Assembly (NCBI GenBank): GCA_035569395.1
Contig: DATMNC010000011.1
Span: 67,560 to 131,559, forward strand
Origin: Thermoanaerobaculia bacterium
GTDB taxonomy: Bacteria > Acidobacteriota > Thermoanaerobaculia > Gp7-AA8
DNA: 64,000 bases
Reading direction: 5' to 3'
How positions within the stretch are numbered: position 1 is the stretch's first letter; each line of letters opens with the position of its first letter. A program made the position numbers and the translations under genes. Positions 530-59,193 of this stretch are shown in pieces. The notes under the pieces were generated by a model, which was not told where the DNA came from, ran no database searches, and saw only the letters and a program-made list of their open reading frames with translations.

Positions 530-618
530 GCGGTTACGGGGTTGCGCGGTCTCGCGGTTACGGAGTCCCGCCCACCCCTGCCGCGAGACTTCGAGACCGC
601 GTAACCGCGAGACCGCGC
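530..618. repeat. palindromic repeat element, family 1 (terminal motif GGTTGCGCGGTCTCGCGGT / ACCGCGAGACCGCGCAACC), copy a
   Basis: Left arm gcggttacggggttgcgcggtctcgcggttacgg, right arm ccgcgagacttcgagaccgcgtaaccgcgagaccgcgc. It abuts the ATG at 619. The same arms recur at 13790, 24152, 43220 and 54378. Confidence 0.8.
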
Positions 619-2484
619 ATGCAAGACTTCATACAGGCAATCGCAGACGAGCACGTCTACCTCTTCGACGGCGCGATGGGTACGATGCTCTATGCCAAGG
701 GTGTCTTCATCAACAAGTGTTACGACGAGCTGAATCTCCGTAATCCGGAGATCGTGCTCGAGGTGCACAAACAGTACGTCCACGCCGGCGCCGAGATCAT
801 CGAGACCAACACCTACGGCGCGAACCGCGTGAAGCTGCGCAGCTTCGGCATCGAAGACGATCTGCGCCATATCAATGGGCGCGGGGCGGCATTGGCGCGC
901 GAAGCGGCCGGCAACGGCGTCTATGTCGCCGGCGCCATCGGTCCGCTCGGCATCCGCATCGAACCGTACGGCCCAACCGCACTCGACGAGGCGCGCGAAT
1001 TCTTCCGCGAGCAGGTAGCCGCGCTCCGCGATGGCGGCGTCGATCTCTTCGTGCTGGAGACGATGTCCAACATCGCCGAGATCGAGCAGGGCATCCTGGC
1101 CATCCGCGACATCTGCTCGCTGCCGATCATCGCCCAGATGACCATCGGCAACGACAGCCGGACGATCTACGGCGACAGGCCGCGGACGATCGCCCAGCGG
1201 CTCGACCTCGCCGGCGCCGACGTCATCGGTCTCAATTGCTCGGTCGGTCCCGACGTCATGCTCGACGCCATCGAGGAGATCACCGCCGTCACCGCGAAGA
1301 AGATCTCCGCCCAGCCCAATGCCGGTCTACCGCGCGAAGTGAACGGGCGCCAGATGTACATGGCCTCACCCGACTACATGGCCAAATACGCCAAGCGGCT
1401 CATCCACAAAGGAGTGAAATTTCTGGGTGGCTGCTGCGGCACGACGCCCGACCACATCAAGATCATGGCCGACGCCGTGCGGCCGCTCTCGCCGCGACGT
1501 TCCTTCGTCGTCGTCGAGCGCGATGCAAACGTCAAGGGAAGCGACGCCAAAGAAGCCGTGCCGATGGCGGCGCGCTCCAATTGGGGAAGGAAGATCGCCG
1601 CCGGCGAGTTCGTGACCACGATCGAGATCACGCCGCCGAAAGGCCCGAATCCCGACAAGATGATCGAGTCCGTGCGCTCGATCAAAGCGGCCGGCGTCGA
1701 CGCGGTGAACGTCCCCGATGGTCCTCGCGCCCAGAACCGGATGGGAGCGATTGCGGTGGCCGTCCTGCTGCAACAGCGCGTCGGCATCGAGACCGTCCTC
1801 CACTACTGCTGCCGCGACCGCAATCTCCTCGGAATGCACTCCGATCTTCTCGGCTGTGCCGCACTCGGTCTGCGCAACCTGCTGCTCATCACCGGCGATC
1901 CTCCGAAGATGGGGCCGTACCCCGACGCCACCGCGGTGTTCGACATCGACTCCATCGGCCTGACGAACATGGCCAACCTGATGAATCACGGTCTCGACCT
2001 CGGCGGCAACCCTTTCGGCGAGCCGACGAAGTTCACCATCGGCGTCGGCGTCAATCCCGGCCACCTCGACCTCGACTACGAGCTCCGCCGTCTCGAATGG
2101 AAAGTGAAGGCGGGCGCCGAGTACGCCATCACACAGCCCGTTTTCGATGTCGCCGTGCTGGAACGTTTTCTCAGCCAGATCGAGCACATGCGCCTCCCCG
2201 TCGTCGCCGGAATCTGGCCGTTGCTCTCGTACCGCAACGCCCAGTTCATGAACAACGAGGTCCCCGGTGTCTCCGTCACCGACGAGGTGATGGAACGGAT
2301 GCGCATCGCCAGCGACAAGAGCAAGGAAGACGGCCTCCGCGAAGGCATCGCCATCGCCCGCGAGACGCTGGAGCGCGTCCGCGGCCGTGTGGCCGGCGTG
2401 CAGGTGTCGGCACCACTAGGGAGGGTCGATCTGGCGCTGCAGGTGTTCGAGGGGTTGGTCGAGCAGCGGGCGATCGTGTCCTGA
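619..2484 (+). CDS. bifunctional homocysteine S-methyltransferase / 5,10-methylenetetrahydrofolate reductase (YitJ-like)
   Basis: The N-terminal half MQDFIQAIADEHVYLFDGAMGTMLY...GAEIIETNTYGAN...LNCSVGP...GGCCGTTPDHI matches the Hcy S-methyltransferase (pterin-independent MetH-like) domain. The C-terminal half PKGPNPDKMIESVRSIKAAGVDAVNVPDGPRA...LHYCCRDRN...LLLITGDPP matches MTHFR. Start chosen at ATG 619, same frame as track ORF 514..2484. Confidence 0.85.
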   Translation: MQDFIQAIADEHVYLFDGAMGTMLYAKGVFINKCYDELNLRNPEIVLEVHKQYVHAGAEIIETNTYGANRVKLRSFGIEDDLRHINGRGAALAREAAGNGVYVAGAIGPLGIRIEPYGPTALDEAREFFREQVAALRDGGVDLFVLETMSNIAEIEQGILAIRDICSLPIIAQMTIGNDSRTIYGDRPRTIAQRLDLAGADVIGLNCSVGPDVMLDAIEEITAVTAKKISAQPNAGLPREVNGRQMYMASPDYMAKYAKRLIHKGVKFLGGCCGTTPDHIKIMADAVRPLSPRRSFVVVERDANVKGSDAKEAVPMAARSNWGRKIAAGEFVTTIEITPPKGPNPDKMIESVRSIKAAGVDAVNVPDGPRAQNRMGAIAVAVLLQQRVGIETVLHYCCRDRNLLGMHSDLLGCAALGLRNLLLITGDPPKMGPYPDATAVFDIDSIGLTNMANLMNHGLDLGGNPFGEPTKFTIGVGVNPGHLDLDYELRRLEWKVKAGAEYAITQPVFDVAVLERFLSQIEHMRLPVVAGIWPLLSYRNAQFMNNEVPGVSVTDEVMERMRIASDKSKEDGLREGIAIARETLERVRGRVAGVQVSAPLGRVDLALQVFEGLVEQRAIVS

Positions 2485-2616
2485 ACGCGATTCGGCGCCG
2501 ATTTCAGGGTCGATTTGTCCACTTTCTCTGCGATTTCGAAGCATTCGGCGCGACCGATGCCCACTTTGATTGGTAGCGACCGTTTTCGGTGAGGTTGCTC
2601 AACCCACCACTCGAGG

Positions 2617-2742
2617 TTTGATGACCGCTCGGGTCCGGTCAACGACCGCTCGGGTGAGGTCAACGAAGGCCCGGGTCCGGTCAACGAACGCTCGCTTGAG
2701 GTTGATGAACGCTCCGTTGAGGTTAACGAACCTGACCGCGCA
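2617..2742. repeat. tandem repeat array, ~6 degenerate copies of a 21-bp unit (gtcaacgaNcgctcgNNtgag)
   Basis: Units read gtttgatgaccgctcgggtccg / gtcaacgaccgctcgggtgag / gtcaacgaaggcccgggtccg / gtcaacgaacgctcgcttgag / gttgatgaacgctccgttgag / gttaacgaacctgaccgcg. The array lies in the convergent gap between the gene ends at 2484 (+) and 2904 (-). Confidence 0.8.
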
Positions 2743-2903
2743 GTGTGCAACGGCGAGGAAGCGAATATTGCGTTAAGCTTCCGCCTCTTCATTCACCATT
2801 CAACACTGAACATTCAACATGCGACATTCCGATTTTGACCTAATCACTCTCTTCCGGCCGCACCTGCTGCTGCACCACCTTCTGCAGAGCCCCGTCCGGT
2901 GTT

Positions 2904-3353
2904 CTAGTTGCCTCCGGCCGGCCCAATGTTCTGGACGACCACTGTCTGAAACTTCCTCGACCCTGCCTCGAACTCCAGCATTCCCCGCACCGTCACCGGA
3001 CCGTTCGTGCCCGCCACCGTCTGTATGGAGACGTACGCCGGCGCCCAGAAGGCAACGCTCTTCGTCTCGCCCGGCCCGATGGTTTCATTGAATCCCTGGG
3101 AGTGCGACGGCAGTGTGTACGAGCCGCCGCCGATCGACTGCACGGTTACCCGCCGAAGTTGCAACGGCTCGCTCAGCGTGTTCTTCACCTCGACCGCGTA
3201 GTGCGCCGTGACCGGGCCGGTGTCGTACTGAGTCCCTTCCGCCACGCGCGAAAGCTGGATGAGCGTTACGTCCGGCTCCGGGCCGGACGGGGCGCCGCTG
3301 GAGGCGCAGCCGAGAGCGAGAAGAAGCACGGCCAACATCGAAACAGTACGCAT
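2904..3353 (-). CDS. hypothetical lipoprotein
   Basis: MRTVSMLAVLLLALGCASS has a signal peptide with an LALGC lipobox; no recognisable domain. Start chosen at the Met that gives a plausible signal peptide (track ORF extends to 3374). Confidence 0.6.
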   Translation of the reverse strand: MRTVSMLAVLLLALGCASSGAPSGPEPDVTLIQLSRVAEGTQYDTGPVTAHYAVEVKNTLSEPLQLRRVTVQSIGGGSYTLPSHSQGFNETIGPGETKSVAFWAPAYVSIQTVAGTNGPVTVRGMLEFEAGSRKFQTVVVQNIGPAGGN

Positions 3354-3430
3354 GATGACGTCCTCCCAAAACATGACGGGGAGCGTTTCCGCCCCCCGTC
3401 AGCTTGCCACAGTCGATCCGTGAAGTTGTT

Positions 3431-4363: not shown

Positions 4364-4446
4364 CTCCTATTGCTTGAATGTTCGTCGGAAGTTAACGCCC
4401 CCTCGGAAGTACCCATTCCGAAAGGAGGCTCCTACGATATTCCGGA

Positions 4447-6123: not shown

Positions 6124-6256
6124 GAAGCGAATCGTATCGGAATGTCCGCCGACGATACCCGACTTTCCAAACCTGCGGCCCTTTCTTCGTTTCGGCTACG
6201 CCGGGGTATGGAAAAGCCCGTGGTCGCGGCCGTCCCTTCCTTTTGAGGTGAGCGTC

Positions 6257-8056: not shown

Positions 8057-8163
8057 TCGTCCGCCGAGGATGCTCCTCCGTGATCCGCAGCGACGCTGGA
8101 TCAGCACCATGGATCGCTATCGTTACCAGACGATCGGCCAGAGTTCTGCTGGGTGTGCGCTCC

Positions 8164-12017: not shown

Positions 12018-13766
12018 ATGAACTTCGTGAGCCGGCGACACATTGCGGGCGGGTTGGTGCTGTTTGCAACATTCGCGGTAGCGACGACAGTGGCCGGAGA
12101 GCCGGGGGGCATCGTTGCCGGAAGCGGGGTCATCACAAAGCGTCCGGGAAGCGCCCGGGAGAGTCAGGTCGACCGTGCGCGAGCCTATTGGAAGACCCTC
12201 AACCTGATCGGCTTTCGTGGAGTGGGGCTGCTTGCAAAAGACGGCAAGACAGTGCTCCTCGAAGGCTCCGGTGGGGTAAACCCGACCGCAACATTCAACC
12301 TCGCCTCGATTGCCAAGTCGATCACGGCAATCGCTGTGCTGCGCCTGGCTCACCGCGGCAAGCTGGGGTTGGACGACACGCTCGACCATTTTTTTCCGGA
12401 TGCGCCGGCCGACAAACGAGCCATCACCGTTCATCAACTGCTGACCCACACCGGAGGTCTCGGGAATCCTACTGGAGATACCGCCGAGGGAACCAAGGAC
12501 CGGGGCCAGGCGGTACGGATGATCCTGGCGACAGCGCTTGTCGACAAGCCCGGGCATTCCCACCACTACTCCAACGACGGGTACACCCTGCTGGCGGCGA
12601 TCCTGGAAGTCGCGGCTTCGAAGAGCTGGGAGCAAGTGATCCACGACGAAATCCTCCGGCCGGCAGGAATGCGACACACGTTCTTCCTGGGTGACTCCCT
12701 GCCCAGTGGGCCGTACGCGATCGCCCGAGCCGCGGTCACCGACGGTGAACCCGTGGAGAGCGACGCCAACTGGGGCTCCAAGGGCGGTGCCGGGATTTAC
12801 TCGAACGCTGAGGATCTGCTGCGCTTCATGAACGCCGCCGTGGATGGAACGTTGCTGGGTGCGCAAGGTGCGCGCGAGCTTGGCAAGTCGTATGCCCCGG
12901 AAGGGCAACTGGAGTACTCGCGCGTGTTTAGTCTGGCGAACATCGCCGGCCGCGGACCGCAGTGGGGGCACGGGGGCGCGGATACCGGAAGCGGCCACTA
13001 TTCGGATCTGGTGTACTACCCGAACACGCGGCTCCTCATAGTCATCCTCGGCTTAGACGACGAGGATCTGAAGACCCAGGTCAGCTCTGGACTTAGCAAA
13101 GTCTTGTTCAGGGAGGGAGCCGGCGAAGTGCCGCCGTCGCGCCCAGGCCACCCAGCGGCCTTCCGCGAACGTCTGGAGCTCCGAGGCGGCAGCCTTCTTT
13201 TCACGATCGAACCCGGCGCCGGGCCGGCGTTGCTCCTGCCTCAAAACTCCGACGCGACATCATTCCTTGTAGCGCGGTCGGAGGCGGAGAAGGCGACGCT
13301 GGAAGGGTGCGTCACAGAGACGGGAAAGCTGCTCGAACAAGTCGCGCAGTTAGCCGCGGCCGATGGGGAATTGCCGGACAGCCAGGTCGGTCGAGCGGCC
13401 ACGGCCTGGCGCCAGGCCAACCTTGAAAACGGCCCTGTGAAGAGCACCTTGATCCTGGGAGCAACGCCGAACTGGGTGGATGGCCTCGGTGGGACGCTCT
13501 CCTTCGTTCGCGTCGCGCGCGAGAAGCAAACGAGCGTGTTTCGACTCTACTGGAGTGGGTCAACGTTGCGTGCCCGCGGGGGACAGGTCTACAAGAACCC
13601 CGCACCGCTGCGACTGATCGACTTCGGAGGAGACGAGTACGGCGGCTGGAACCCCGCGATCGGGGTGTACGTCGACCTCCGACTCTCACTCAAAGACGGT
13701 GAGCGACAGGCGATCCTCGAGGCCGGCGGGAAGAGCATCGCGCTGACGGCGTCGTCTCAGCCGTGA
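12018..13766 (+). CDS. serine hydrolase, beta-lactamase/penicillin-binding-protein family, secreted
   Basis: Signal peptide is present; an SxxK motif in NLASIAKSITAIAVLRL and a YSN motif (HHYSNDGY) are typical of class C beta-lactamase-like fold. Confidence 0.75.
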   Translation: MNFVSRRHIAGGLVLFATFAVATTVAGEPGGIVAGSGVITKRPGSARESQVDRARAYWKTLNLIGFRGVGLLAKDGKTVLLEGSGGVNPTATFNLASIAKSITAIAVLRLAHRGKLGLDDTLDHFFPDAPADKRAITVHQLLTHTGGLGNPTGDTAEGTKDRGQAVRMILATALVDKPGHSHHYSNDGYTLLAAILEVAASKSWEQVIHDEILRPAGMRHTFFLGDSLPSGPYAIARAAVTDGEPVESDANWGSKGGAGIYSNAEDLLRFMNAAVDGTLLGAQGARELGKSYAPEGQLEYSRVFSLANIAGRGPQWGHGGADTGSGHYSDLVYYPNTRLLIVILGLDDEDLKTQVSSGLSKVLFREGAGEVPPSRPGHPAAFRERLELRGGSLLFTIEPGAGPALLLPQNSDATSFLVARSEAEKATLEGCVTETGKLLEQVAQLAAADGELPDSQVGRAATAWRQANLENGPVKSTLILGATPNWVDGLGGTLSFVRVAREKQTSVFRLYWSGSTLRARGGQVYKNPAPLRLIDFGGDEYGGWNPAIGVYVDLRLSLKDGERQAILEAGGKSIALTASSQP

Positions 13767-13789: not shown

Positions 13790-13935
13790 CGGTCTGGTCT
13801 CGCGGTCTCGCGGTGGGAAACGGGTTACCGGGTTGTTGCGTTGCACAGTTGCTGGTTGGCGCCGAGCACCCTGGAAACCCAGTACGCAGCAACCCGACAC
13901 TGCGAGACCGCGCAACCGCGAGACCCCGCAACCCC
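13790..13935. repeat. palindromic repeat element, family 1, copy b
   Basis: The arms are ggtctcgcggtctcgcggtg ... ctgcgagaccgcgcaaccgcgagaccccgcaacc. It starts ~25 bp after the stop codon at 13764-13766. Confidence 0.8.
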
Positions 13936-14190
13936 GCTGTCAAAAAACCTTTCCATCCACGGCCCACTTGACGCAGCGCCGCCAGGCGTTCCCGAGTAAG
14001 CCGCTCCTTTTCAATCAGTTAGCCATTCCGGCACGCTGGCCGTTCGATCGCACTACGCCTCCCGCGAAAGGAGGTGGTGCTAACGGAGAGAGCCAATTCC
14101 AACTGATGCAGAGGATCAAAGGTCCTCGTGTGGGAAACAGCCAAAACAACGAAACGCGTCAACGGTCAACGAAAAAGACAACCAACGAAT

Positions 14191-14605: not shown

Positions 14606-14660
14606 CCGTCCCTCCAAAAGGCCGCCTCGCGCAAGCGAGGCGGCCGTCTTGGAAGGGACC
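14606..14660 (+). terminator. strong GC hairpin downstream of comEA (terminator / RNA-stability element, no U-run)
   Basis: Perfect 11-bp stem ggccgcctcgc-gcaa-gcgaggcggcc, extended by ccctccaaaag/tcttggaaggg. Confidence 0.4.
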
Positions 14661-14755
14661 GGTGGATTCGTAGATCAGTGGATTAGTGGATTTTGCAGAC
14701 CACCGCGTTCTCCAACCACTAATCCACTAATCCACTCGATTCACCCAATCCACTG
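14660..14755. repeat. palindromic repeat element, family 2 (termini CAGTGGATTAGTGGATT / AATCCACTAATCCACTG), copy a
   Basis: Left arm ggtggattcgtagatcagtggattagtggatt, right arm aaccactaatccactaatccactcg...aatccactg. Related copies are at 53207 and 59100. Confidence 0.8.
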
Positions 14756-23186: not shown

Positions 23187-23403
23187 TGCCCCGTCCCCCG
23201 AGCTATCCATTGCCGCTCGTTGCCGGTTCGCGGCGGCCGTCAGCACTTCGTTGCGATTCATGCTTCCACATCGGCGCTGCCGTCCACGTCAGCGGCCGGT
23301 CGCTCTGCGGTGAATGCTTCTTCGAGATCTCCGCGACCGAGGAGGCGAAGAGGCTGGGAACAATGGACCAGAGAATGGAAACGGAGGCGGCGTACGATCA
23401 CGT

Positions 23404-26606
<3,203 letters not shown>

Positions 26607-29132: not shown

Positions 29133-29245
29133 GCTCCCGTTTCGATCCTCGCTTGCTTGGTTTCGACCCTCGCTTGCTTCGTTTTGACCCTCGTTTTGCT
29201 TGGTTTCGACTCTCGGTTGCTTCGTTTCGCCGATCGCTTGCTTCA
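29133..29245. repeat. tandem repeat array, ~5 copies of a 21-22-bp unit (gtttcgaccctcgcttgcttc)
   Basis: Units are gtttcgatcctcgcttgcttg / gtttcgaccctcgcttgcttc / gttttgaccctcgttttgcttg / gtttcgactctcggttgcttc / gtttcgccgatcgcttgcttc. It shares the core CTCGCTTG with the array at 2617-2742 and likewise lies in a convergent gap. Confidence 0.8.
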
Positions 29246-29251
29246 TTTCAT

Positions 29252-38244: not shown

Positions 38245-38394
38245 CGCTTCATCCTGACGTGGAGCGCAGCGAAACGGTCAGGATCTCCGGTGGAATTGCG
38301 CGAACTGTGGGCGCAGGCAACGTTTTCGAGGCGCCACCGAAGATTCTGACATGTTCGCTGCGCTCACGGTCAGGATAGAGTACGAATAGAAACC

Positions 38395-39897: not shown

Positions 39898-39977
39898 GTG
39901 GGCCGGGTGTCGGGTGTCGGGGGTCGGGGGTCGGGGGTGGAAGTAAAACCAAGATCCTCTTCTCCGACTCCCGGCCC
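39898..39977. repeat. palindromic repeat element, family 3 (termini GGGAGTCGGG...CCCGACTCCC), copy a, with G-run tract
   Basis: The sequence is gggccgggtgtcgggtgtcgggggtcgggggtcgggggtgg...ctccgactcccggccc. It starts immediately after the rng stop (39895-97). It has at least five consecutive G3+ runs (G-quadruplex potential). Related copies are at 45356 and 50949. Confidence 0.7.
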
Positions 39978-40376: not shown

Positions 40377-41108
40377 TCAGCTCTTCCGGCGACGTTCGCC
40401 AGCTACGTAATGCGAAACGAGCGCTCGTTGCCCATCAGGCTCAACCTGTTGCGGCCTGTAGCTATGCTCGGTAATCAACGCGATGAACGCCTCCGGCGAT
40501 TCGATCGCGGTCTCAAGCAGGCCTTTCGACATGAGGCTCATGAACAGCGCGCATGAACGCGCTTGGCAATTCACCGAACGCTCTGGGTTGAACTCGATAT
40601 CCGTAAAACCAGCGTATCTGTTCAATCGCAACAGCAGCCATTCGCGATGCGGATAAATCGCGTTGATGTACAGCCAATCGTAGAACGCGGTTTTAGGCTC
40701 AAGAGGGAACCGAATGTCCTCGAAATCGAAGCCGATCAAGCGTCCGGACTCCCTCAGCCGCGGATCGCGTTTCGCATCTCTTACATCTGCTCCGTAGAGA
40801 TCCGTGAACGGCCCGCCATGCTCGAATACCTTGCTGCCCTGGAACGCGCATTCCAGCGACATCTCACCATGCTGCCCCCGTACGTTCAGATGAAACGCGC
40901 TCAAGTGTTGCCCGACCTTCTCGGTCGACTTTGAGGAGATCTCCAGTAGCGGCTCGAATCCGGCCGCAGCCGCGGCCGCATGGAGCGACGCGACATTCTT
41001 CTGCTTCTGGACTGGCGCGAAACCCGGGTGCCACCTCAGCCAGAAATAGAACTCCTTTACGAGCTCGGGCTCATCGGGTACTGGTACAAAGATCGGTCGT
41101 TCAGCCAT
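40377..41108 (-). CDS. hypothetical protein, downstream partner of the DarT-like gene (candidate antitoxin / ADP-ribosyl hydrolase, possibly NADAR-like)
   Basis: Overlaps the upstream DarT-like gene by 8 nt. The segment LSAFHLNVRGQHGEMSLECAFQGSKVF loosely resembles the NADAR (DUF1768) SNF...G...EHxFQxxKF core; there are no macrodomain motifs. Lower GC than neighbours. Confidence 0.4.
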   Translation of the reverse strand: MAERPIFVPVPDEPELVKEFYFWLRWHPGFAPVQKQKNVASLHAAAAAAGFEPLLEISSKSTEKVGQHLSAFHLNVRGQHGEMSLECAFQGSKVFEHGGPFTDLYGADVRDAKRDPRLRESGRLIGFDFEDIRFPLEPKTAFYDWLYINAIYPHREWLLLRLNRYAGFTDIEFNPERSVNCQARSCALFMSLMSKGLLETAIESPEAFIALITEHSYRPQQVEPDGQRALVSHYVAGERRRKS

Positions 41109-41622
41109 TAGGGAAGTTCCGAATGAGGTCCAGCGAAATGAATCGGGGTACGAGGATTTCGCTTTTCTCAGCCTGCAACAGTCTCTCTCTGATCGCAGGA
41201 TCGCGCCACTCAGTCCAGCTATACAACACCTCGAAATCGATCATGTTCGCTGCTTCGTCGATTGGGTAGGCTTGCACGCCGCTTTTATTCGATACATCCG
41301 CCGTGAACAGAACCCCGTCCCACTGAAGAACTTCAGGATGCACGTTGAGGAAGATCGTATCGGTGATGCGCCCGTCCGCGCGCGCGACGTACTCCATTGG
41401 ATGCGTCCACCGGAAGCACAGATGCACGTACTCGTCGAGCCCTCTCATGCAGTCAGTATCGTGGCTCCACTGGTTTCCACCCGGCGCCGGAATCTCGATT
41501 CCTCGCCGCTTCATCTCCGCGAGCGCCAACAACCCTCCATGCTCGCGAATCGACGCAAGATTTCGTCGGTCCGTGAAGTGAAACAGAACGTTGATGCGCT
41601 TGAGTTGCTCTTTGGTCATCAC
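41101..41622 (-). CDS. DarT-like ADP-ribosyltransferase (DUF4433 family) toxin candidate
   Basis: LFHFTDRRNLASIREHGGLL (compare DarT IxHxTHxDNLxxIL), GLDEYVHLCF (compare GTLHDYVPFYF), and RLLQAEKSEILVPRFISLDLI (compare ERYQAEALIWQHxPISLL, including the catalytic QAE glutamate). Confidence 0.5.
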   Translation of the reverse strand: MMTKEQLKRINVLFHFTDRRNLASIREHGGLLALAEMKRRGIEIPAPGGNQWSHDTDCMRGLDEYVHLCFRWTHPMEYVARADGRITDTIFLNVHPEVLQWDGVLFTADVSNKSGVQAYPIDEAANMIDFEVLYSWTEWRDPAIRERLLQAEKSEILVPRFISLDLIRNFPNG

Positions 41623-41831: not shown

Positions 41832-43219
<1,388 letters not shown>

Positions 43220-43403
43220 GCGGTTGCGAGGTCTCGCGGTTGCGGGGTCTCGCGGTGCTTGGTTGCTGAGTTGCTTGGTTGCTGAGTTGCTTGGTTGCTG
43301 AGTTGCTTGGTTGCTGAGCAACAAGCTGCTTGGCTGCTCAACAACTCAGCAACCTTGCAACCCCACACCGCGAGACCGCGCAACCCCGAGACCGCGCAAC
43401 CGC
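43220..43403. repeat. palindromic repeat element, family 1, copy d, containing 4 tandem copies of a 16-bp unit (ggttgctgagttgctt)
   Basis: The arms are gcggttgcgaggtctcgcggttgcggggtctcgcggtg ... caccgcgagaccgcgcaaccccgagaccgcgcaaccgc. The interior is 4 x ggttgctgagttgctt followed by an inverted copy (cagcaacc...). It fills the whole gap between two convergent stop codons. Confidence 0.85.
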
Positions 43404-45316
43404 TAATTCGTCCCCGCCACAGCTTCCGCCACCTTCTTCTTCGCCTCGTACTTCGCCGACTTTCCCTCGTAGATGAAGATGCCTTCGCCGAGGGTGCCGA
43501 CGTAGAGGCGGTCAGGGTTGAAGGGGTCGAGGGCCACGGATGTCACCTCGGCGGTTCGTGAGGGGAGCGGGAAGGAGCGCCATTCGGACTCTTTCGGTTC
43601 GGCTACGAGCATCTGCTGCTGCTGGCGCGAGGTAAGGAAGACAAAGTTGTCGTTGCTGCGCCAGCCTCCGAAGACGGACGCGAACTGAGCGTCGGGTGCT
43701 TCGACTTCGCTCCATTTGGCGTCCGCGCTGACGCGTCCCGCCTTGACGCCCTGCGCGCCGGCGACGAAGACGAGCTGGCCCTCGCCCGCACCGCGTACGG
43801 CCAGCGTACGGCCTTTGGCGGGCGCACCATCGATCGCCAGCCACTGCGTACCGTCGAAGGCGATTACACCGGCGCTGGTCAGGGCGAAAAGAGCGCGCTT
43901 CTCGCCGAGGTTGCCAATGGCTATGTCGACGGCGCGATTGTCGGCGCCGGCCAGGCGGTACCAACTCTTCCCGGAGTCGCGGCTGGTGAAAACGCCTTCG
44001 GAGGTCGCCGCGAAATAACGGACGTTGTTGAGGCGGAGCACCTTGTCGACGCGAATGGGGAAGCTGGCCGGTTGCGCCTGCGTCCACTGCACGCCATCGC
44101 TGCTCCAGAAGAATCCCTTTTCCGTTCCTGCCAGGAACCTGACCTCGGCGTCTTCGGTGACGACGAGCGACAGGACCTGCGGCAGATCATTCGTGGCCAG
44201 TCTGGTCCAGGTCGTTCCGGAGTCGGTCGAGCGATAGATGCCGCTCGATTCGCCTCCGAATGCCACGGCCGCATAGACGTTCTTCGGCTGGGTGGCGTCG
44301 GCAGCGACCGAGGTGATGGTCAGATTTCGCAGTCCGTCGCAGGTTCGCGTGAAGGTCTTCGCGTCATCATTGGAGAGATAGACGCCGTCGCCCTCCACGC
44401 CGAGGATCACGCGGCCGGGCCGCTGCGGATGAAGGGCGATGGTGTTCACGACGAGCGACTCATCGCCGATCGAGTACCAGGTCTTTCCGCCATCGTGGCT
44501 GTGATACAGCCCGGCCACGGAGCCGGCGTAAATCGAGTCCTGATCGCAGGGGTCGAGCTCGATGTCGTGGATGCGCCGGTTGTTGAATCCGTCGCGGTAG
44601 CGGGTCCAGTTCTCGCCGCGGTTCGGCGTGTTGTAGACCCAGCCGCATGTCGAGACCCAGACTTTGTCGGGGTTGTAGCGGTCGATGGTGATCGAGAACA
44701 TGTCGGTGTCGAGCACCATGCCGTTGTTGATCAGCTTCCAGGTCTTGCCGCCGTCGTCGGTGCGCGTTCCCTGCCGCCAGGTGCCGACGTAGATGCGGTC
44801 GTGCGTGCGTGGGTCCAGCGCGAGCGATTCGACGTTGATCTGATCGGAGATCTTTGACCACGACTGGCCGCCGTCGGTCGATCGATAGACGCCGGTTAGG
44901 CCGCCGGCCAGAACGAAATCGGCATCGTGGGGATCGATGGCGATGGCACGGACCGAAAAGTCTTCCAGGCCGGCATCGCGCCGCGTCCAGTTACGGCCGC
45001 CATCCTCCGATACAGCGATTACGCCGCCGCCCCACGCGCCCCAGCAAGCGGCCCAGAGCCGGCCGTTGCGGTCGACCACGAGGTTGTCGACGACGTATCC
45101 CGGAAACGGGATGCCGCCGCGCGGGTTCTGCCACGACTTCGCGCCGTCGGTCGAGACGTAGACCTCGCCGCCGCTTGTGCCGAGGTAGAGCGTGTCGGGA
45201 TTCGAAGGATCGATGATCAGCGCGCGGACGTCGGCCCCATACAGATTGGCGCGCCGCCACTGCGCGCAAAGAGGGAGTGCCGTGAAGATCGCTAGAACGA
45301 TGAGGAGTTTACGCAT
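43403..45316 (-). CDS. BNR/Asp-box repeat protein (beta-propeller; sialidase/Ycf48/xyloglucanase-like), secreted
   Basis: Repeated S/TxDxGxxW boxes: STDGAKSWQ, SEDGGRNWT, STDGGQSWS, DDGGKTWK, SHDGGKTWY, STDSGTTWT. Start at MRKLLIVLAIFTALPLCA (signal peptide), shortened from the track ORF. Confidence 0.75.
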   Translation of the reverse strand: MRKLLIVLAIFTALPLCAQWRRANLYGADVRALIIDPSNPDTLYLGTSGGEVYVSTDGAKSWQNPRGGIPFPGYVVDNLVVDRNGRLWAACWGAWGGGVIAVSEDGGRNWTRRDAGLEDFSVRAIAIDPHDADFVLAGGLTGVYRSTDGGQSWSKISDQINVESLALDPRTHDRIYVGTWRQGTRTDDGGKTWKLINNGMVLDTDMFSITIDRYNPDKVWVSTCGWVYNTPNRGENWTRYRDGFNNRRIHDIELDPCDQDSIYAGSVAGLYHSHDGGKTWYSIGDESLVVNTIALHPQRPGRVILGVEGDGVYLSNDDAKTFTRTCDGLRNLTITSVAADATQPKNVYAAVAFGGESSGIYRSTDSGTTWTRLATNDLPQVLSLVVTEDAEVRFLAGTEKGFFWSSDGVQWTQAQPASFPIRVDKVLRLNNVRYFAATSEGVFTSRDSGKSWYRLAGADNRAVDIAIGNLGEKRALFALTSAGVIAFDGTQWLAIDGAPAKGRTLAVRGAGEGQLVFVAGAQGVKAGRVSADAKWSEVEAPDAQFASVFGGWRSNDNFVFLTSRQQQQMLVAEPKESEWRSFPLPSRTAEVTSVALDPFNPDRLYVGTLGEGIFIYEGKSAKYEAKKKVAEAVAGTN

Positions 45317-45355: not shown

Positions 45356-45452
45356 TCGGGGGTCGAGAGCCGGGAGGCGGGGGTCGAAGTGGGAGCCGGG
45401 AGCGGGAGGAGCGGTACTTTTCCAATCTCCGACCACCGACTCCCGGCAAGCG
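45356..45452. repeat. palindromic repeat element, family 3, copy b (in divergent promoter region)
   Basis: The sequence is gggggtcgagagccgggaggcgggggtcgaagtgggagccgggagcgggagg...ctccgaccaccgactcccggcaagcgacccccgcc. Confidence 0.7.
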
Positions 45453-45484
45453 ACCCCCGCCTCACTGCTATCCTTCCCCGCGAC

Positions 45485-46393
<909 letters not shown>

Positions 46394-46621: not shown

Positions 46622-46873
46622 ATGTGGAATGACCGTTTGCGCTTCGCGGAGCGCGTGGAAAAAGACTGGCGGGCGCTGACCGGTGAACAGCGTGCCGCCG
46701 CGGCGCGGGCGCTGGAGACGATCGACGAAGATCCGATCATCGGCGCACCGCTGTTCGAGCCGTTGCGCGGGTATTGGAGTTACCGCAGCGAGGGGATACG
46801 TATCGTCTATCGCATCGTCACCGAGGCGCGCTTCATCGTGGTGTTGAATATCGGGCTGGTGATGGCGCGATGA
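46622..46873 (+). CDS. RelE/ParE-family toxin
   Basis: 83 aa with the C-terminus GIRIVYRIVTEARFIVVLNIG typical of RelE/ParE. It is tightly coupled to the upstream antitoxin and overlaps the maf start (ATGA). Confidence 0.7.
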   Translation: MWNDRLRFAERVEKDWRALTGEQRAAAARALETIDEDPIIGAPLFEPLRGYWSYRSEGIRIVYRIVTEARFIVVLNIGLVMAR

Positions 46874-47514
46874 CGTTCATTCTGGCTTCCGGATCGCCGC
46901 GCCGCCGTGAGTTGCTCTCTTCGATCGGCCTCACCTTCGACGTAATGCCGAGCGACATTCCTGAAATTCACCAGCCCGGAGAGTCCCCCGAGGAGTATGT
47001 GGCGCGCCTGTCGAGAGGCAAGGCAGCGGTCATTGCCGCGCTGCACCCGGACGCCTGGATCATCGCCGCCGACACCACGGTGCTCCTCGGCGATGAACTG
47101 CTCGAAAAGCCGCTTGACGCGGACGACGCCAAGCGGATGCTGGCCACGATCTCCGGCAAGACGCACATGGTCTACACGGGAGTCACGGTGCAGAACGCAG
47201 CGCGCGGGTGGCACGACACGCGCGTGGCGGAGACGGAAGTGCGTATGCTGCCGTTGGACGCGCGGGACATCGCGTGGTATGTCTCGACCGGTGAGCCGCT
47301 CGACAAAGCGGGCGCCTATGCGGCCCAGGGGATCGGAGCGATCTTTATCGACTCCATCCACGGCAGCTATACGAACGTAGTTGGATTGCCACTTGCTTTA
47401 CTTTTCCAGATGCTGAGACGGGCAGGGGTCGATTTTGTGCGGGAGTCGGGTGTCGGAAGCCGGGCGCCGGTGCTTGCCGACCGCGCCGATATGCTTCCTC
47501 CGACTTACGAATAG
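46870..47514 (+). CDS. maf: Maf-like nucleoside triphosphate pyrophosphatase (septum formation protein)
   Basis: FILASGSPRRRELL...DTVV...AGAYAAQGIGAIFI is the Maf signature. Confidence 0.85.
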   Translation: MTFILASGSPRRRELLSSIGLTFDVMPSDIPEIHQPGESPEEYVARLSRGKAAVIAALHPDAWIIAADTTVLLGDELLEKPLDADDAKRMLATISGKTHMVYTGVTVQNAARGWHDTRVAETEVRMLPLDARDIAWYVSTGEPLDKAGAYAAQGIGAIFIDSIHGSYTNVVGLPLALLFQMLRRAGVDFVRESGVGSRAPVLADRADMLPPTYE

Positions 47515-49055: not shown

Positions 49056-49057
49056 GC

Positions 49058-50935: not shown

Positions 50936-50948
50936 CGGGGAATTGTAT

Positions 50949-51025
50949 GGGAGTCGGGTGTCGGGGGGTTCGGAACCGCTGCGGACAGTCCGCGTTGATC
51001 CGACGCCGATTCCCGACCCTCCGCT
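50949..51025. repeat. palindromic repeat element, family 3, copy c
   Basis: The sequence is gggagtcgggtgtcggggggttcggaaccgctgcggacagtccgcgttgatccgacgccgattcccgaccctcc. Confidence 0.65.
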
Positions 51026-51071
51026 CCTTATGGTTCAGGTTTTGCTATTGACCCGTTGGAATGGAGTTGCA

Positions 51072-51374: not shown

Positions 51375-51400
51375 CCTGAACATTTCGGAGCTCTCTCACG

Positions 51401-52585: not shown

Positions 52586-52603
52586 TTAGCCGGCGCGCGG
52601 TTG

Positions 52604-53206: not shown

Positions 53207-53296
53207 ACAGTGGATTGGTAGATTAGTGGATTCGTAGATCAGGGTTGCTCAATCCGCGACGAATCCACTGTTCGACAGACCGACTAGTCCACTGCC
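53207..53296. repeat. palindromic repeat element, family 2, copy b (fills the purM-purN intercistronic gap)
   Basis: The sequence is acagtggattggtagattagtggattcgtagatcagggttgctcaatccgcgacgaatccactgttcgacagaccgactagtccactgcc, lying exactly between stop 53297 and start 53206. Confidence 0.8.
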
Positions 53297-54361: not shown

Positions 54362-54377
54362 AGGGCGAGTGTATCAG

Positions 54378-54550
54378 CGCGGTTACGCGGTTGCGCGGTT
54401 ACGCGGTCTCGCGGTTGCCAAGTAGCCCCAATTGCCGAACATTGAACGCTTGGATGCAGTGTCGCGACTGCTGGGAGGTTCCAGGTTATGGTTGCGTTGA
54501 CGCATTCCACCGCGAGACCCCGCAACCGCGAGACCCCGCCGCAACCGCAA
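54378..54550. repeat. palindromic repeat element, family 1, copy e
   Basis: The arms are gcgcggttacgcggttgcgcggttacgcggtctcgcggttgcc ... ccaccgcgagaccccgcaaccgcgagaccccgccgcaaccgcaagacc. Confidence 0.8.
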
Positions 54551-54568
54551 GACCTATAATCCCCTCCC

Positions 54569-55021: not shown

Positions 55022-55024
55022 CCG

Positions 55025-56665: not shown

Positions 56666-56738
56666 TTGTTGGCTGTCAGGATAAAACGAAAGGGCGACGC
56701 TTTCGCGCCGCCCAGAAAGCCGAATCGGAGAGTCCGAC

Positions 56739-57941: not shown

Positions 57942-57964
57942 CTCCTCCGGTTAACGTCCCACCA

Positions 57965-59092
57965 TCACACGGTGCGGGGCCGGGCGCCGGTCGGCGCCGC
58001 GGTTCCCTGCGGCGCGAGGGTTCCAGCGCCGCGCGAAATCATTTCCTGAAGCTCGTCGGGGTTCGAAGAACGGGCCAGCGCGGTCTGCAGAGTGATGTGC
58101 TTCTTGAAGTACAACGTCGCCAACGACTGGTTGAAAGTCTGCATTCCGTACTTGGTCTGGCCGGTCTGCATCATCGAGTAGATCTGATGGACCTTGTCCT
58201 CGCGGATGAGATTGCGGATGGCGGCATTGGGTACGAGGATCTCCATGGCCATCGCCCGCCCCTTTCCATTTGCACGCGGCAGGAGTGACTGGCAGAGGAT
58301 TCCTTCGAGCACGAACGACAGCTGGGCGCGGATCTGCGGCTGCTGATGCGACGGAAAAACGTCGACGATACGGTTGATCGTCTGTGCCGCGGAGTTGGTA
58401 TGCAGCGTGCCGAACGTCAGATGGCCGGTCTCGGCAATGCGCAACGCGGACTCGATGGTCTCGAGATCGCGCATCTCGCCGATGAGCACGACGTCCGGAT
58501 CCTGGCGCAGCGCGGACTTCAGTGAGTTGGCGAACGAATGTGTATCCGCGTGAAGCTCGCGCTGGTTGACGATACAGCTCTTATGCGCGTGCAGAAACTC
58601 GACCGGATCTTCGATGGTGATGATGTGCTCGTGACGCTCCCGGTTGATCTTGTCGATCATCGCGGCCAGCGTCGTCGACTTGCCCGAGCCGGTGGGGCCG
58701 GTAACGAGCACGAGACCTCGGGGCTTGTTGCAGATCTCCTCGACCACCGTCGGGAGACCGAGCTCCCGAAATCCGAGGATCTCGTAAGGGATCTGGCGAT
58801 AGACGGCAGCCGTGGCGCCGCGTTGGTTGAAGATGTTGGCGCGGAAACGGGCCAGGCCCTTGATGCCGAATGAGAGATCGAGCTCGAGGTTTTCCTCAAA
58901 GCGGTGCTTCTGCGCGTCGGTCAGCACCGAGTAGGCAAGCTGTTTCGTCTCCGGAGCCATCAGAGGTGGCATATCCAGCGGCGTTAACTTGCCGTCGATC
59001 CGAATCTGCGGGGCCGAGTTGGTGGTGATGTGCAGATCCGAGCCACCGCGCTCGACCATCGTCTTGAGAAGTTGATGAAGGGTGACGGACAT
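57965..59092 (-). CDS. pilT: twitching motility ATPase PilT
   Basis: LHQLLKTMVERGGSDLHIT, Walker A GPTGSGKST, the AIRNLIRE motif, and typical PilT length. Confidence 0.85.
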   Translation of the reverse strand: MSVTLHQLLKTMVERGGSDLHITTNSAPQIRIDGKLTPLDMPPLMAPETKQLAYSVLTDAQKHRFEENLELDLSFGIKGLARFRANIFNQRGATAAVYRQIPYEILGFRELGLPTVVEEICNKPRGLVLVTGPTGSGKSTTLAAMIDKINRERHEHIITIEDPVEFLHAHKSCIVNQRELHADTHSFANSLKSALRQDPDVVLIGEMRDLETIESALRIAETGHLTFGTLHTNSAAQTINRIVDVFPSHQQPQIRAQLSFVLEGILCQSLLPRANGKGRAMAMEILVPNAAIRNLIREDKVHQIYSMMQTGQTKYGMQTFNQSLATLYFKKHITLQTALARSSNPDELQEMISRGAGTLAPQGTAAPTGARPRTV

Positions 59093-59099
59093 TGTCTCT

Positions 59100-59193
59100 C
59101 CGTAGTCGATCAGTAGGTTAGTGGATTAGTAGATTGGAGAGGCGGTTGGATTCGTTCTCCGAAGCTCTTCCCACGAATCTCTGATCCACTGCC
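59100..59193. repeat. palindromic repeat element, family 2, copy c (fills the pilB-pilT intercistronic gap)
   Basis: The sequence is ccgtagtcgatcagtaggttagtggattagtagattggagaggcggttggattcgttctccgaagctcttcccacgaatctctgatccactgcc. Confidence 0.8.

Follow-up and report, generated by a model that had tools for sequence, protein, structure and literature searches.

The palindromic elements scattered through the analyzed window, a 64,000-nt stretch of the genome of an uncultured soil acidobacterium, represent a class of non-coding 'mirror-SSR hairpins' that occurs throughout the Thermoanaerobaculia lineage (Acidobacteriota). Their arms are short tandem arrays of 7–8-nt units that mirror each other around a unique centre. 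These mirror-repeat hairpins are abundant bacterial repeats that have been poorly described and are unlike ordinary miniature transposons. We assign a probability of about 50% to the interpretation that they are selfish or near-neutral and accrete at hairpin-prone gene boundaries through single-strand, replication-associated copying and slippage. The sampled DNA, 1.6 Mb in all, comprised about 64 kb of the window genome and scattered 8–21-kb pieces of other genomes, and 80 syntenic metagenome loci served for comparison.

All 11 copies listed in the original prediction were present where it had placed them, and each of the 11 was predicted to fold as a hairpin over the whole element (RNA minimum free energy −38 to −134 kcal/mol, z = −2.1 to −13.5). 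A second fold test with DNA parameters and dinucleotide-preserving shuffles gave copies F1c and F1b z-scores of −10.5 and about −3.5, respectively, and the degenerate F2b one of −2.7. When the window was scanned for ungapped inverted repeats, 17 clusters emerged, compared with 0–1 in shuffled sequences. The core of family 1 (Fam1), GGTCTCGCGGT, occurred 22 times with ≤1 mismatch (3.7 expected), a count reached in 0 of 100 shuffles, and the Fam2 core occurred 17 times (4.5 expected; 0/100 shuffles). The short Fam3 motif showed no overall enrichment in the window (42 occurrences, 37.9 expected); exact matches to it were concentrated in the named copies and at a single additional site, 47441–47457. 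That site is part of a degenerate Fam3-like hairpin (47440–47510; weak fold, z = −2.3), tentatively counted as a twelfth copy, which makes up the 3′ end of a maf-like ORF (its final ~24 codons plus the stop). The tally of three families and 11 copies was too low on both counts, as this hairpin, a separate palindrome at 38251–38376, and a vocabulary of about 70 unit consensus sequences sharing a single architecture attest.

Among the Fam1 hairpins, F1a (530–619; period-8 array; −52.9 kcal/mol, z = −5.1) is bounded on one side by an intrinsic-terminator-like hairpin (495–529) and on the other by a homocysteine S-methyltransferase/MTHFR gene (Pfam), which starts with the ATG at 619. F1b (13790–13937), recognized by its tandem array and fold (DNA z = −3.45), is located 3′ of a gene of the beta-lactamase family, whose stop is at 13766, and 5′ of a ComEA-like HHH gene (Pfam), and is layered, with outer arms of GGTCTCGC and an inner GGTTGC-type array. 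F1d (43219–43404; 71-nt arms; −134.5 kcal/mol, z = −13.5) occupies the entire gap separating two convergent genes, a 155-aa ORF with its stop at 43219 and a BNR/sortilin-like gene with its stop at 43403; the outer arms of this hairpin, made of GGTTGCGS/GGTCTCGC units, surround an inner array of GGTTGCTGAGTTGCTT, and locus L065 has only a left arm at this site, plus other DNA. F1e (54377–54556), supported by its fold and by orthologous-site comparison, separates purM from a divergently oriented 150-aa ORF and is wedged between a minus-strand TATAAT and a plus-strand TGATACACT, a pair of back-to-back −10 boxes. The Fam2 hairpins comprise F2a (14660–14755; z = −7.4) in a convergent gap adjoining a terminator-like hairpin (14620–14645), the degenerate F2b (53207–53296; z = −2.7), which fills the purM–purN intercistronic gap, and F2c (59100–59193) in the pilB–pilT gap, which ends right before the pilT ribosome-binding site (CGGAGAG). 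The Fam3 heptamer hairpin F3a (39898–39977; period 7, 5.6 copies) directly follows the stop codon of the RNase E/G gene. Two others occupy divergent gaps: the Fam3-type F3b (45356–45462) separates the BNR/sortilin-like gene from a nucleotidyl-transferase gene, and F3c (50949–51025; z = −2.1) separates an ABC transporter gene from a 100-aa ORF. The originally described proximity of the element start to a stop codon, a few bases away, applies to some copies only; four of the named copies precede start codons or lie in the promoter gaps of divergent genes.

The remaining Fam1 hairpin, F1c (24152–24243), is not intergenic as originally listed but lies in frame within a yfhO-family coding sequence (23407–25656, plus strand). 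The GC3 frame signal of this gene runs unbroken through F1c, which encodes the peptide ...RGLGVARSRGTSEVKTPRDSATARPRN..., and its in-frame translation is present in dozens of independently predicted proteins. The yfhO-family homologues are 720–760 aa long; the loop at F1c consists of an ancestral segment of 43 aa (ADRRDWLRRFRAP), or of 60 aa with Fam1-derived sequence in a close clade. The Rickettsia palindromic elements (RPE) reported by Ogata et al. in 2000 form several palindromic families that occur between genes and also in frame in genes, where they add a peptide segment; no transposase is known for them. The proposed resemblance to RPE was borne out for this one copy. Unlike the elements described here, RPE copies are homologous over their entire 100–150 nt, lack 7–8-nt units, and belong to a different lineage.

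The termini of the original description are mirrored but are not simple inverted repeats: they consist of tandem arrays with a period of 8/16 (Fam1 and Fam2) or 7 (Fam3) according to TRF. The units are GGTTGCGS/GGTCTCGC in Fam1, AGTGGATT/CGTAGATC in Fam2, and GGGNGTC in Fam3. In Fam1 the unit variants alternate regularly and form a 16-nt super-unit, the stems contain a mismatch at every 8th nt, and the outer ends start at a variable phase; Fam2 arrays mostly have one starting unit phase (CAGTGG...CCACTG). A census of non-coding arrays in 1.63 Mb revealed 223 with period 7 and 227 with period 8, whereas periods 6, 9, and 10 accounted for 22, 29, and 9 arrays, respectively, and array pairs within 350 nt were inverted in 133 cases vs direct in 6. 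The arms had a median length of 4.3 units and differed by at least 8 nt in 35% of the pairs. The G/T-rich arm was 5′ of the dyad in 11/11 window copies, and the ratio of G-first to C-first polarity was 123:7 overall, 53:2 for unlinked loci, and 64:5 when counted by distinct unit family. Several to many unit dialects coexist within one genome and even within one array, and elements can contain outer and inner array layers. No unique sequence was common to the interiors of 67 Fam1 copies. Since most units (Fam1, Fam2, and many others) are devoid of G-tracts, G-quadruplexes cannot be the common denominator.

As anticipated, the motifs recur beyond the window, both genome-wide and lineage-wide: the exact Fam1 19-mer was found in at least ten Thermoanaerobaculia species, including a complete 6.6-Mb chromosome, and was absent from viral contigs. 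Eight of 12 well-sampled orthologous junctions were filled in some lineages and empty in others, and this turnover across syntenic loci involved many unit families, even at gaps of 1–4 nt. The purM|purN junction (F2b site) reads TGAC with no element in the closest relatives, L076–L079, and accommodates at least eight unit families elsewhere; at least eight also fill the F1e site in other lineages, where the empty state measures 36–37 nt. The pilB–pilT site of F2c holds a Fam3-type element in L076–79 and a GTGGTCA-type element in L092, and the F3b position contains a Fam1 element with intact flanks in L065, L076, and L079. Unit numbers changed on each arm of the F3a ortholog in L065, which kept its loop, and they differ in the F3c orthologs of L076–79; unit indels of 8 and 24 nt separate genomes that are 97% identical. 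In L082, L099, and L101, TAGCTCT arms surround an orthologous intrinsic terminator, which is bare in L076–79 and the window. Among unpaired arrays, the predicted inner side was the more structured one in 24 of 36 cases (p = 0.03), a weak test with partly orthologous loci. The presence/absence pattern could partly reflect inter-strain recombination instead of new events. Because the elements are real, hairpin-forming, repeated, present or absent at orthologous sites, and represented by one in-frame copy, they are some kind of non-autonomous spreading repeat, and to this extent the original idea of mobile elements holds. The labels MITE, REP/BIME, and Correia do not fit repeats with arms of 7–8-mer arrays, with no common interior in the 67 Fam1 copies, and with no target-site duplication, a feature raised beforehand and absent from every empty/filled comparison.

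From the anatomy of the elements we infer how they may spread, including the copying step. On each strand, unit arrays of existing copies would be copied to a position 5′ of a hairpin, most likely when a nascent strand that has stalled at the hairpin switches template, or alternatively by a single-strand enzyme of the HUH type that is directed to hairpins. Any small palindrome, be it a terminator or an older repeat, would thus gain matching arms on both sides, and layered, onion-like elements would arise because the longer hairpin would be an even better target. Replication slippage would alter the number of units, whereas breakage and repair of the hairpin would exchange centres and entire arms. 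Selection would retain an insertion only if it falls into the handful of nucleotides that separate genes or promoter boxes, or is in frame within a protein loop that tolerates it. Template switching alone does not explain the 7–8-nt units, the laying of the G-rich strand toward the dyad, or the Fam2 phase; the constancy of this phase looks more like a defined end recognized by an enzyme. We further infer that the elements code for nothing and do not move by cut-and-paste transposition.

An enzymatic origin in the manner of REPIN/RAYT systems is possible, albeit rather improbable. A Y1 (HUH) transposase of the IS200/IS605 group, RAYT or 'TIRYT', encoded elsewhere could copy the hairpin arrays as single-stranded DNA without target duplication, with either its own enzyme for each unit dialect or one structure-reading enzyme. 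The lack of target-site duplications, the hairpin doublets, the several families in each genome, and the fairly constant outer phase of Fam2 would agree with this scenario; conventional REPIN-like doublets share these genomes, REPs have in-gene copies, and RAYT-like TIRYT genes with flanking families of repeated TIRs have been reported from Acidobacteria (PMC3733652). However, the arms are unlike REP units, which are self-palindromes of 20–40 nt tagged with GTAG or CGTC; the spacer varies within a family whereas REPINs replicate as a unit, about 70 dialects would require many enzymes, and the 7–8-nt periodicity and the drift in unit number would be left unexplained. A weak screen of the 1.6 Mb, including 74 blocks picked for carrying Fam1, detected no Y1-like gene or other cognate transposase, and Pfam identified none among the genes flanking elements; a cognate enzyme may be encoded outside the sampled DNA. 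Classical MITEs, deletion derivatives of IS whose sub-terminal repeats are bound by a DDE transposase acting in trans (foldback-type or Tn7/Mu-like ends), likewise have inverted ends, presence/absence polymorphism, and high copy numbers, and Fam1 arms enclose genes in L030 (1.3 kb) and L065. Drosophila foldback (FB) elements also possess long inverted arms of short tandem repeats with unequal, variable lengths, heterogeneous centres, and sometimes unrelated genes, but they are eukaryotic, kilobase-scale elements with target-site duplications, some with transposase-like genes of their own. The MITE reading is very improbable and largely refuted because target-site duplications are absent at the compared sites; moreover, the Fam1 outer ends vary in phase, the copies share no interior, the enclosed genes are toxin-antitoxin-like and not transposases, and an orthologous terminator can have an arm on either side.

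Maintenance as functional cis-elements under selection (bidirectional terminators, 3′-end mRNA stabilizers, RNase III or RNase E/G sites, or protein-binding arrays) appears unlikely, even though the elements recur at gene ends with a mild enrichment in convergent gaps (16/73 occupied vs 24/160 co-directional gaps) and the hairpin base brings stop and start codons together at purM/purN and pilB/pilT. The G-first polarity could mean selection against first exposing a C-rich, Rho-loading arm, and the arms have about four units like those of Xanthomonas, whose repeats are mostly transcribed (PMC4692102). Yet the closest relatives are fine with an empty site (TGAC at purM|purN), family, length, and centre are freely exchanged at a single site, copies also lie in divergent promoter gaps and within coding sequence, no Rfam family matched the elements, and no regulatory role was found by Rehm et al. 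(PMC4692102). A role as RNA stability or processing signals, which had been suggested, is unsupported as the reason for persistence: stem mismatches showed no sense-strand wobble bias (G.U vs A.C, 17:22 and 41:46), and a T-run followed 0/11 copies. The absence of a wobble bias is compatible with a DNA-level or both-strand function. Transcripts carrying the elements probably form long stem-loops, and any effect on expression is probably a by-product because RNA pairing gave no sign of maintaining the hairpins. In-situ synthesis, in which a telomerase-like reverse transcriptase or a reiterating primase-polymerase extends 3′ ends that have stalled or broken on both strands with G/T-rich 7–8-mers before end joining creates head-to-head arrays, seems improbable. 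It predicts the G-first polarity, GT-rich 7–8-nt units, missing target duplications, arms of unequal length, centres that consist of unique filler, and the replacement of elements where palindromes make a site fragile, and the arrangement recalls head-to-head telomere fusions. The several to many unit dialects per genome and even per array, and the regular alternation of Fam1 variants, argue against it, a central terminator misfits a single healed break, and no candidate enzyme or template RNA was seen in the sampled DNA. Chimeric fold-back reads from assembly or amplification, although some library methods can generate palindromes, are a refuted and practically negligible explanation because the same elements occupy orthologous positions in independent ENA, JGI, and NCBI assemblies, including a complete chromosome; one copy is also translated in frame in dozens of independent protein predictions.

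The closest described system is that of the inverted GGGAATC heptamer pairs of Xanthomonas. Heptamer simple-sequence repeats are known from Xanthomonas (GGGAATC) and Nostoc (GGGGA(C/T)T), and in Xanthomonas 70–75 cases per genome are convergent array pairs on opposite strands that can form stem-loops (Rehm et al. 2015, PMC4692102). These repeats prefer four units per array, lie near start and stop codons, and are conserved in place in 83% of cases, with length and sequence varying among close relatives while the site is kept (PMC4692102). The hairpins described here similarly consist of tandem G-rich 7-nt units in non-coding DNA with ~4 units per array (median 4.3), but they also employ 8-nt units, dozens of dialects coexist where Xanthomonas has one per genome, nearly all arrays are paired, and sites are often empty or refilled by another dialect. 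Layering around older hairpins and in-frame gene copies likewise set them apart from the Xanthomonas descriptions. The STRR heptamers of cyanobacteria, including Calothrix, and the TAACTGA repeats of Beggiatoaceae are also abundant intergenic tandem heptamers near gene starts with lineage-specific units and an unexplained phylogenetic distribution (PMC4679880). In contrast to the mirrored hairpins, those are nearly all direct arrays, with 169 direct sets vs 1 indirect set in BOGUAY (MacGregor 2015, PMC4679880).

REP/BIME/REPIN elements, treated together with RPE in PMC3733652, share with the mirror-repeat hairpins the high-copy extragenic inverted-doublet structure, the lack of target duplication, and the occurrence of several families per genome, but differ in their imperfect tagged palindromes, conserved spacer, and normally present REP-flanked RAYT gene, three features of which none was found here. 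Other insertions preferentially target REP-type elements (PMC3733652). The palindrome at 38251–38376 (43-nt arms without tandem units; z = −8.8), located in the divergent gap upstream of the RNase E/G gene, is a separate, REP-type class and shows that gaps hosting mirror-repeat hairpins collect conventional palindromic repeats too. Its relatives were found at other junctions in L084, L094, L095, L107, L109, and L118.

The original prediction of 11 copies of three hairpin families (Fam1, Fam2 and Fam3) in the window was confirmed and extended, and all copies were present at the predicted positions. In the window, which has a G+C content of ~63% and, over the part compared, is identical to the ENA metagenome contig ERZ27253680 k141_144798 (124 kb), 17 inverted-repeat clusters were detected compared with 0–1 in shuffled sequences. 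The Fam1 core occurred 22 times with up to one mismatch (3.7 expected) and the Fam2 core 17 times with up to two mismatches (4.5 expected). Exact matches to Fam3 were concentrated in the named copies, and once one mismatch was allowed the Fam3 10-mer was not enriched in this GC-rich window (42 matches, 37.9 expected). Each copy formed a single end-to-end hairpin according to RNA folding, supplemented by folding with DNA parameters and dinucleotide-preserving shuffles. A scan of the window against Rfam 15 at the gathering threshold retrieved only a tRNA-Asn, and no copy matched a curated RNA family.

In anatomy, the copies depart from the original description, in that their arms consist of short tandem arrays instead of plain inverted repeats. 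Fam1 arms consist of GGTTGCGS units alternating with GGTCTCGC (period 8, forming a 16-nt super-unit) and include the variants GGTTACGC and GGTTGCTG; Fam2 arms are built from AGTGGATT and CGTAGATC units with a period of 8, and Fam3 arms from GGGNGTC units with a period of 7. The opposite arm is the mirrored array and the centre is unique. The units are not self-complementary, pairing takes place only from arm to arm, and mismatches in the Fam1 stems fall on each eighth position, which is the S position. Layering is common in Fam1, with GGTTGCGS/GGTCTCGC arrays outside, GGTTGCTG-type arrays inside and the loop innermost. Paired arrays are separated by 2 to 340 nt, and by 1.3 kb in the related locus L030. 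Interiors of Fam1 (67 were compared, each ≥30 nt long) had no unique sequence in common, and every match between them was an inner octamer array; the copies share an arm vocabulary and not a whole element. Fam2 arrays start mostly in one unit phase (CAGTGG...CCACTG), and the ends of Fam1 vary more. The outer and inner halves of the stems did not differ in a test of stem age (89% and 88% matched, respectively).

The motifs are not restricted to the window. Among the matches listed for species-representative genomes, nearly all of those to the exact Fam1 19-mer GGTTGCGSGGTCTCGCGGT fell in at least ten Thermoanaerobaculia species, and its carriers include a complete 6.64-Mb chromosome; outside the Thermoanaerobaculia, the matches listed comprised a handful of single hits that presumably arose by chance. 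Fam2 was also present in several of the genomes carrying Fam1, and neither motif was found in viral contigs. The spectra of unit variants were alike between genomes, with mild lineage signatures.

A census of arrays was obtained by running Tandem Repeats Finder on the window and 154 related loci (1.63 Mb in total). The non-coding arrays had periods of 7 (223 arrays) or 8 (227 arrays) and, less often, of 6, 9 or 10 (22, 29 and 9 arrays, respectively), and they represented about 70 distinct unit consensus sequences, each of which we refer to as a dialect. Of 139 array pairs located at most 350 nt apart, 133 were inverted and six direct. The 5' array was the G-rich (and also G+T-rich) one in 123 pairs, compared with seven reversed pairs, and this polarity persisted in unlinked loci (53:2), when counted by distinct unit consensus (64:5) and in the window (11/11). 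Because an inverted repeat is identical on both strands, this amounts to a genuine handedness of the element and no strand effect. Arms contained a median of 4.3 units and differed in length by at least 8 nt in 35% of the pairs. Where arrays appeared to be single, a degenerate partner lay on the side predicted by the polarity in 127 cases vs. 33. The window also harbors unpaired arrays at 2790–2829 (CATTCAA, 5.7 units, upstream of the minus-strand gene at 2904–3374) and at 60911–60938 (GGTTTCGGTAAG, 2.3 units, directly upstream of the pilB start). Direct, non-mirrored tandem arrays of 21-nt units occupy intergenic gaps at 2626–2731 and 29138–29249, and the junction between the ABC and MlaD genes, only 8 nt long in the window, contains a 21/42-mer array of ~400 nt that varies in copy number in L076 (15.25–15.66 kb), L078 and L079.

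Turnover of the elements was assessed at orthologous gene junctions by a purM-anchored scan of 80 syntenic loci, which retained synteny at protein identities of 78–97%. The purM|purN junction was empty in 48 of 78 loci, among them the closest relatives L076–79, and consisted there of TGAC or less. In the filled state, it was occupied by hairpins of Fam2, GTGGTCA, GTGCTGAG, GGCGGATG, GCAGAGGG, CGTGATC, CAATTGA or GACGCGGA units, and in L081 a Fam1 element adjoined the remnant right arm of a Fam2 element. The divergent g150|purM gap measures 36–37 nt when empty and contains two back-to-back −10 boxes, that of purM being an extended −10 (TGATACACT); at least eight dialects as well as REP-type palindromes were inserted exactly between both boxes. 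The gap between pilB and pilT was filled by Fam2 in the window, Fam3 in L076–79, GTGGTCA units in L092 and GGGAGTGG units in L085, L090 and L101. The convergent S11|purN and g150|pilS junctions, with empty states of 2–9 nt, had a dozen different occupants over the lineages. By a strict criterion, a hairpin was present in some lineages and absent in others at 8 of 12 well-sampled junctions. Such hairpins never occurred at pilC|pilT, pilB|GT9 and two overlapping junctions.

Replacement and resizing were also visible between close relatives. The Maf-like and MlaD-like proteins of the window are 96–98% identical to those in a block of the metagenome-assembled genome Thermoanaerobaculia bacterium Chersky.31_28 (L065). 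These identities and the near restriction of the Fam1 motif to Thermoanaerobaculia genomes assign the window to an uncultured member of this class. The gap between the BNR and nucleotidyl-transferase genes contains Fam3 in the window and Fam1 in L065, L076 and L079, with identical flanks. The L065 ortholog of the Fam3 copy at 39898–39977 has the same loop and differs in unit number on each arm, and L076–79, which are 97% identical, differ by array indels of 8 and 24 nt. Comparison of empty and filled states revealed no target-site duplication at purM|purN, g150|purM, g150|pilS or BNR|NTP-transferase, where 0–8 extra, non-repeated nucleotides were found instead.

Some arms surround hairpins of another type. 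The intrinsic terminator between pilS and pilC (GGGCGGCGCG..CGTCGCCC followed by a T-run) is bare in the window and in L076–79; in L082, L099 and L101, mirrored arrays of TAGCTCT heptamers lie on either side of it. Therefore, arms can be added around an older hairpin. In L083–92, the TAGCTCT arms enclose a REPIN-like doublet, which apparently took the place of the terminator stem. For unpaired arrays, the 50 nt on the predicted inner side folded better than those on the outer side in 24 of 36 cases (p = 0.03); the test was weak, and some of its loci were not independent of each other. In the window, canonical terminator-like hairpins at 495–529 (GCCCCACG..CGTGGGGC followed by TTTTTGTTT) and 14620–14645 (GGCCGCCTCG..CGAGGCGGCC) directly adjoin the Fam1 copy at 530–619 and the Fam2 copy at 14660–14755, respectively, which fits with arrays settling beside existing hairpins. 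In the REPIN-like doublets, the self-palindromic GCACAGACAAGAGTGTCTGTGC is present twice in inverted orientation, ~100 nt apart, and classical examples were observed at pilS/pilC (L083, L087–L092), g150/pilS (L088) and S11/purN (L115).

One copy lies within coding sequence. The GC3 frame signal is unbroken through the Fam1 copy at 24152–24243, which lies in an ORF for a yfhO-family membrane protein (homologues of 720–760 aa) and is translated as ...RGLGVARSRG-TSEVK-TPRDSATARPRN.... More than 60 yfhO homologues possess the ancestral loop segment of 43 aa (..ADRRDWLRRFRAP..) at this site. In the clade nearest to the window the segment measures 60 aa and includes the arm-encoded RGLGVARSRG...ATARPRN; some members of this clade carry trimmed versions of the insert, and other lineages have unrelated in-frame inserts in the same loop. 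The yfhO-family gene of the window (23407–25656) is split by an in-frame TAA at 23728–23730 into ORFs at 23314–23730 and 23827–25656, the upstream ORF representing the yfhO N-terminal part. All close homologues encode Tyr (TAC) at this position, and the TAA may be polymorphic, an error of sequencing or the mark of a pseudogene. Another in-frame insert, of ~35–100 aa and unrelated to the first (..HAGGVxEISRWQAPQARxHRI..PGRG..RWRRAxGACHRLIS..PPAW), was observed in a different yfhO loop in other lineages (P0003, P0009–P0011, P0014 and P0015) and resembles a translated copy of some other widespread palindromic repeat. Furthermore, the maf-like ORF (46774–47514) owes its stop codon and its last ~24 residues to a degenerate Fam3-like hairpin at 47440–47514 and thus has a 3' extension made by the repeat.

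The long stem-loops join stop and start codons at cistron ends, and a role in RNA stability or processing had been suggested for them. In unlinked loci, 24 elements were located in co-directional, 16 in convergent and eight in divergent gaps, as compared with 160:73:56 for background gaps, indicating a slight enrichment confined to convergent gaps. None of the 11 hairpins was followed within 12 nt by a contiguous T-run on either strand, and hence their identity as intrinsic terminators was rejected. CsrA binding was rejected as well, as the GGA motifs are buried in stems. In co-directional contexts, sense-strand G·U and A·C mismatches of the arms were equally frequent (17:22 in unlinked and 41:46 in syntenic loci), giving no sign of selection on pairing in the sense transcript. 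As T-runs and a mismatch bias are lacking and close relatives do well with empty sites, we infer that effects on transcripts are by-products of the elements, i.e., consequences and not the cause of their existence.

The proposal of palindromic, probably mobile, non-autonomous elements was right in part, and the specific MITE and REP labels did not hold. Unlike MITEs, the copies lack a flanking target-site duplication and are not homologous over their full length within a family, as seen for the 67 Fam1 interiors. Within the window and the related loci (1.6 Mb, from partial genomes), no autonomous element with matching terminal inverted repeats was seen. The REP label requires imperfect palindromes of 20–40 nt with a GTAG or CGTC tag instead of tandem 7–8-mers, and REP/REPIN-RAYT systems have a family-specific conserved spacer between their inverted units, whereas the centres observed here are unique. 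A tblastn search of the partial genomes for a Y1/HUH gene, a weak test that used sequences of IS608 TnpA and Escherichia coli RayT, gave only spurious antisense hits, the best of which (in L126 and L134) were antisense to real genes, a FabH-like gene and another ORF. Correia elements (NEMIS) are characterized by 26-nt terminal inverted repeats, a TA duplication and an IHF site; no copy has TA flanks, and the arms are unit arrays. The resemblance to Rickettsia palindromic elements turned out to be behavioral, in that in-frame insertion is tolerated as an extra peptide, which is also true of the Fam1 copy in yfhO; membership in that family is implausible because of the unit-array architecture and the host lineage. 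Integron attC sites were rejected, since the arms are unlike R''/R' boxes and the host genes are core genes, and so were IS630/Tc1-like ends, as CAGTG termini are present without TA flanks.

The closest published description is that of the GGGAATC heptamer repeats of Xanthomonas (Rehm et al. 2015, PMC4692102). Each genome has 183–186 arrays, with four as the preferred number of units, and 70–75 pairs are inverted and convergent; array lengths differ from species to species, and no function was found. Both types share tandem units in non-coding DNA, with at least two units per array (period 7 in Fam3, and 8 in Fam1 and Fam2), and nearby arrays placed convergently on opposite strands, as in our 133 inverted vs. 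six direct pairs. In contrast to the Xanthomonas repeats, the units described here are mostly 8 nt long and many dialects exist side by side. G-tract, G-quadruplex-capable units of the GGGNATC type are confined to Fam3-like dialects; most units, including those of Fam1 (GGTTGCGS/GGTCTCGC) and Fam2 (AGTGGATT), lack G-tracts. Turnover and replacement are also much faster here, and layering and in-gene copies are features of the present elements. Cyanobacterial STRR and the TAACTGA repeats of Beggiatoa form direct arrays, unlike the mirrored ones found here. In the searchable literature on repeats of Thermoanaerobaculia and Acidobacteria these elements were found nowhere described, and the only relevant matches of our literature search were the Xanthomonas/Nostoc and Beggiatoa heptamer papers.

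Since the 1990s, bacterial intergenic regions have been known to be rich in 7-nt tandem repeats, an excess that extends to 8-nt ones here and that, to our knowledge, has never been explained. The elements are a multi-dialect, octamer/heptamer and strictly mirrored form of this repeat type. The Thermoanaerobaculia are an unusually informative case. Dozens of dialects follow a single strict plan, in which mirrored arrays of about four units each are arranged with the G-rich arm leading; turnover is rapid enough to be noticed between genomes that are 93–97% identical; various dialects have repeatedly entered gaps of only 1–4 nt, layers form around older hairpins, and in-frame copies are tolerated within a gene. 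The long-standing heptamer-repeat puzzle thereby becomes open to tests on data that already exist, namely long-read metagenomes and complete chromosomes of Thermoanaerobaculia. This is of relevance to research on bacterial repeats and genome stability. In practical terms, the elements shift predictions of start codons and operons and give rise to spurious ORF extensions and to peptide inserts within genes; short-read assemblies of soil Acidobacteriota are likely to break at them.

Architecture, turnover, recurrence, layering and in-frame copies together constrain the mechanism. Hairpins of 7–8-nt units with fixed polarity and a lineage-wide vocabulary are rapidly gained, lost, replaced and altered in unit number; no target is duplicated, arms are added around older hairpins, and in-frame copies are tolerated inside a gene. 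Such features point to a process that acts on single strands, is directed by hairpins and leaves the target unduplicated. Existing copies would serve as donors of arrays, which would be copied to a position 5' of a hairpin on either strand, through copy-choice by a stalled nascent strand or by a hairpin-directed HUH-type enzyme. Slippage could resize the arrays afterwards, centres and arms might be replaced through breakage and repair, and purifying selection would spare only insertions in a few permissive nucleotides. Candidate reasons for the polarity are that the G-rich strand is synthesized toward the dyad and that selection acts against transcripts in which the C-rich, Rho-loading arm comes first. 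Alternatively, the arms could be made in situ instead of being copied from other loci. A dedicated enzyme carrying an internal template, either a telomerase-like reverse transcriptase or a reiterating primase-polymerase, would add G/T-rich 7–8-mers, on both strands, to 3' ends that had stalled or broken at hairpins. We consider this very improbable; if true, the elements would be the bacterial equivalent of interstitial telomere repeats in head-to-head arrangement and would represent scars left by a new repair pathway.

Foreign DNA can also lie between Fam1 arms. The Fam1 arms in L030 (4860–6240) enclose 1.3 kb with a toxin–antitoxin-like pair, i.e., a DUF4065/Panacea-like antitoxin ORF and its 158-aa partner, and a transposase considered for this segment was thus rejected. 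At the L065 site orthologous to the Fam1 copy at 43220–43403, an insert of ~350 nt with a possible small ORF retains the left Fam1 arm only. The hairpin elements may serve as landing sites for small toxin–antitoxin cassettes. A REP-type palindrome without short units and with arms of 43 nt (ATCCTGAC..GAGCGCAGCGAA..) is located at 38251–38376 in the window, and its relatives occur at other junctions in L084, L094, L095, L107, L109 and L118, including hot spots of mirror hairpins. DarT, an ssDNA ADP-ribosyltransferase, and a DarT1-associated NADAR antitoxin form a pair at 40377–41622 (with 41844–42755) in a stretch of lower G+C content (0.59). The entire block at 40.0–42.6 kb, including a LigB-type dioxygenase, is missing from the close relative L065, where other genes follow RNase E/G and its Fam3 hairpin.
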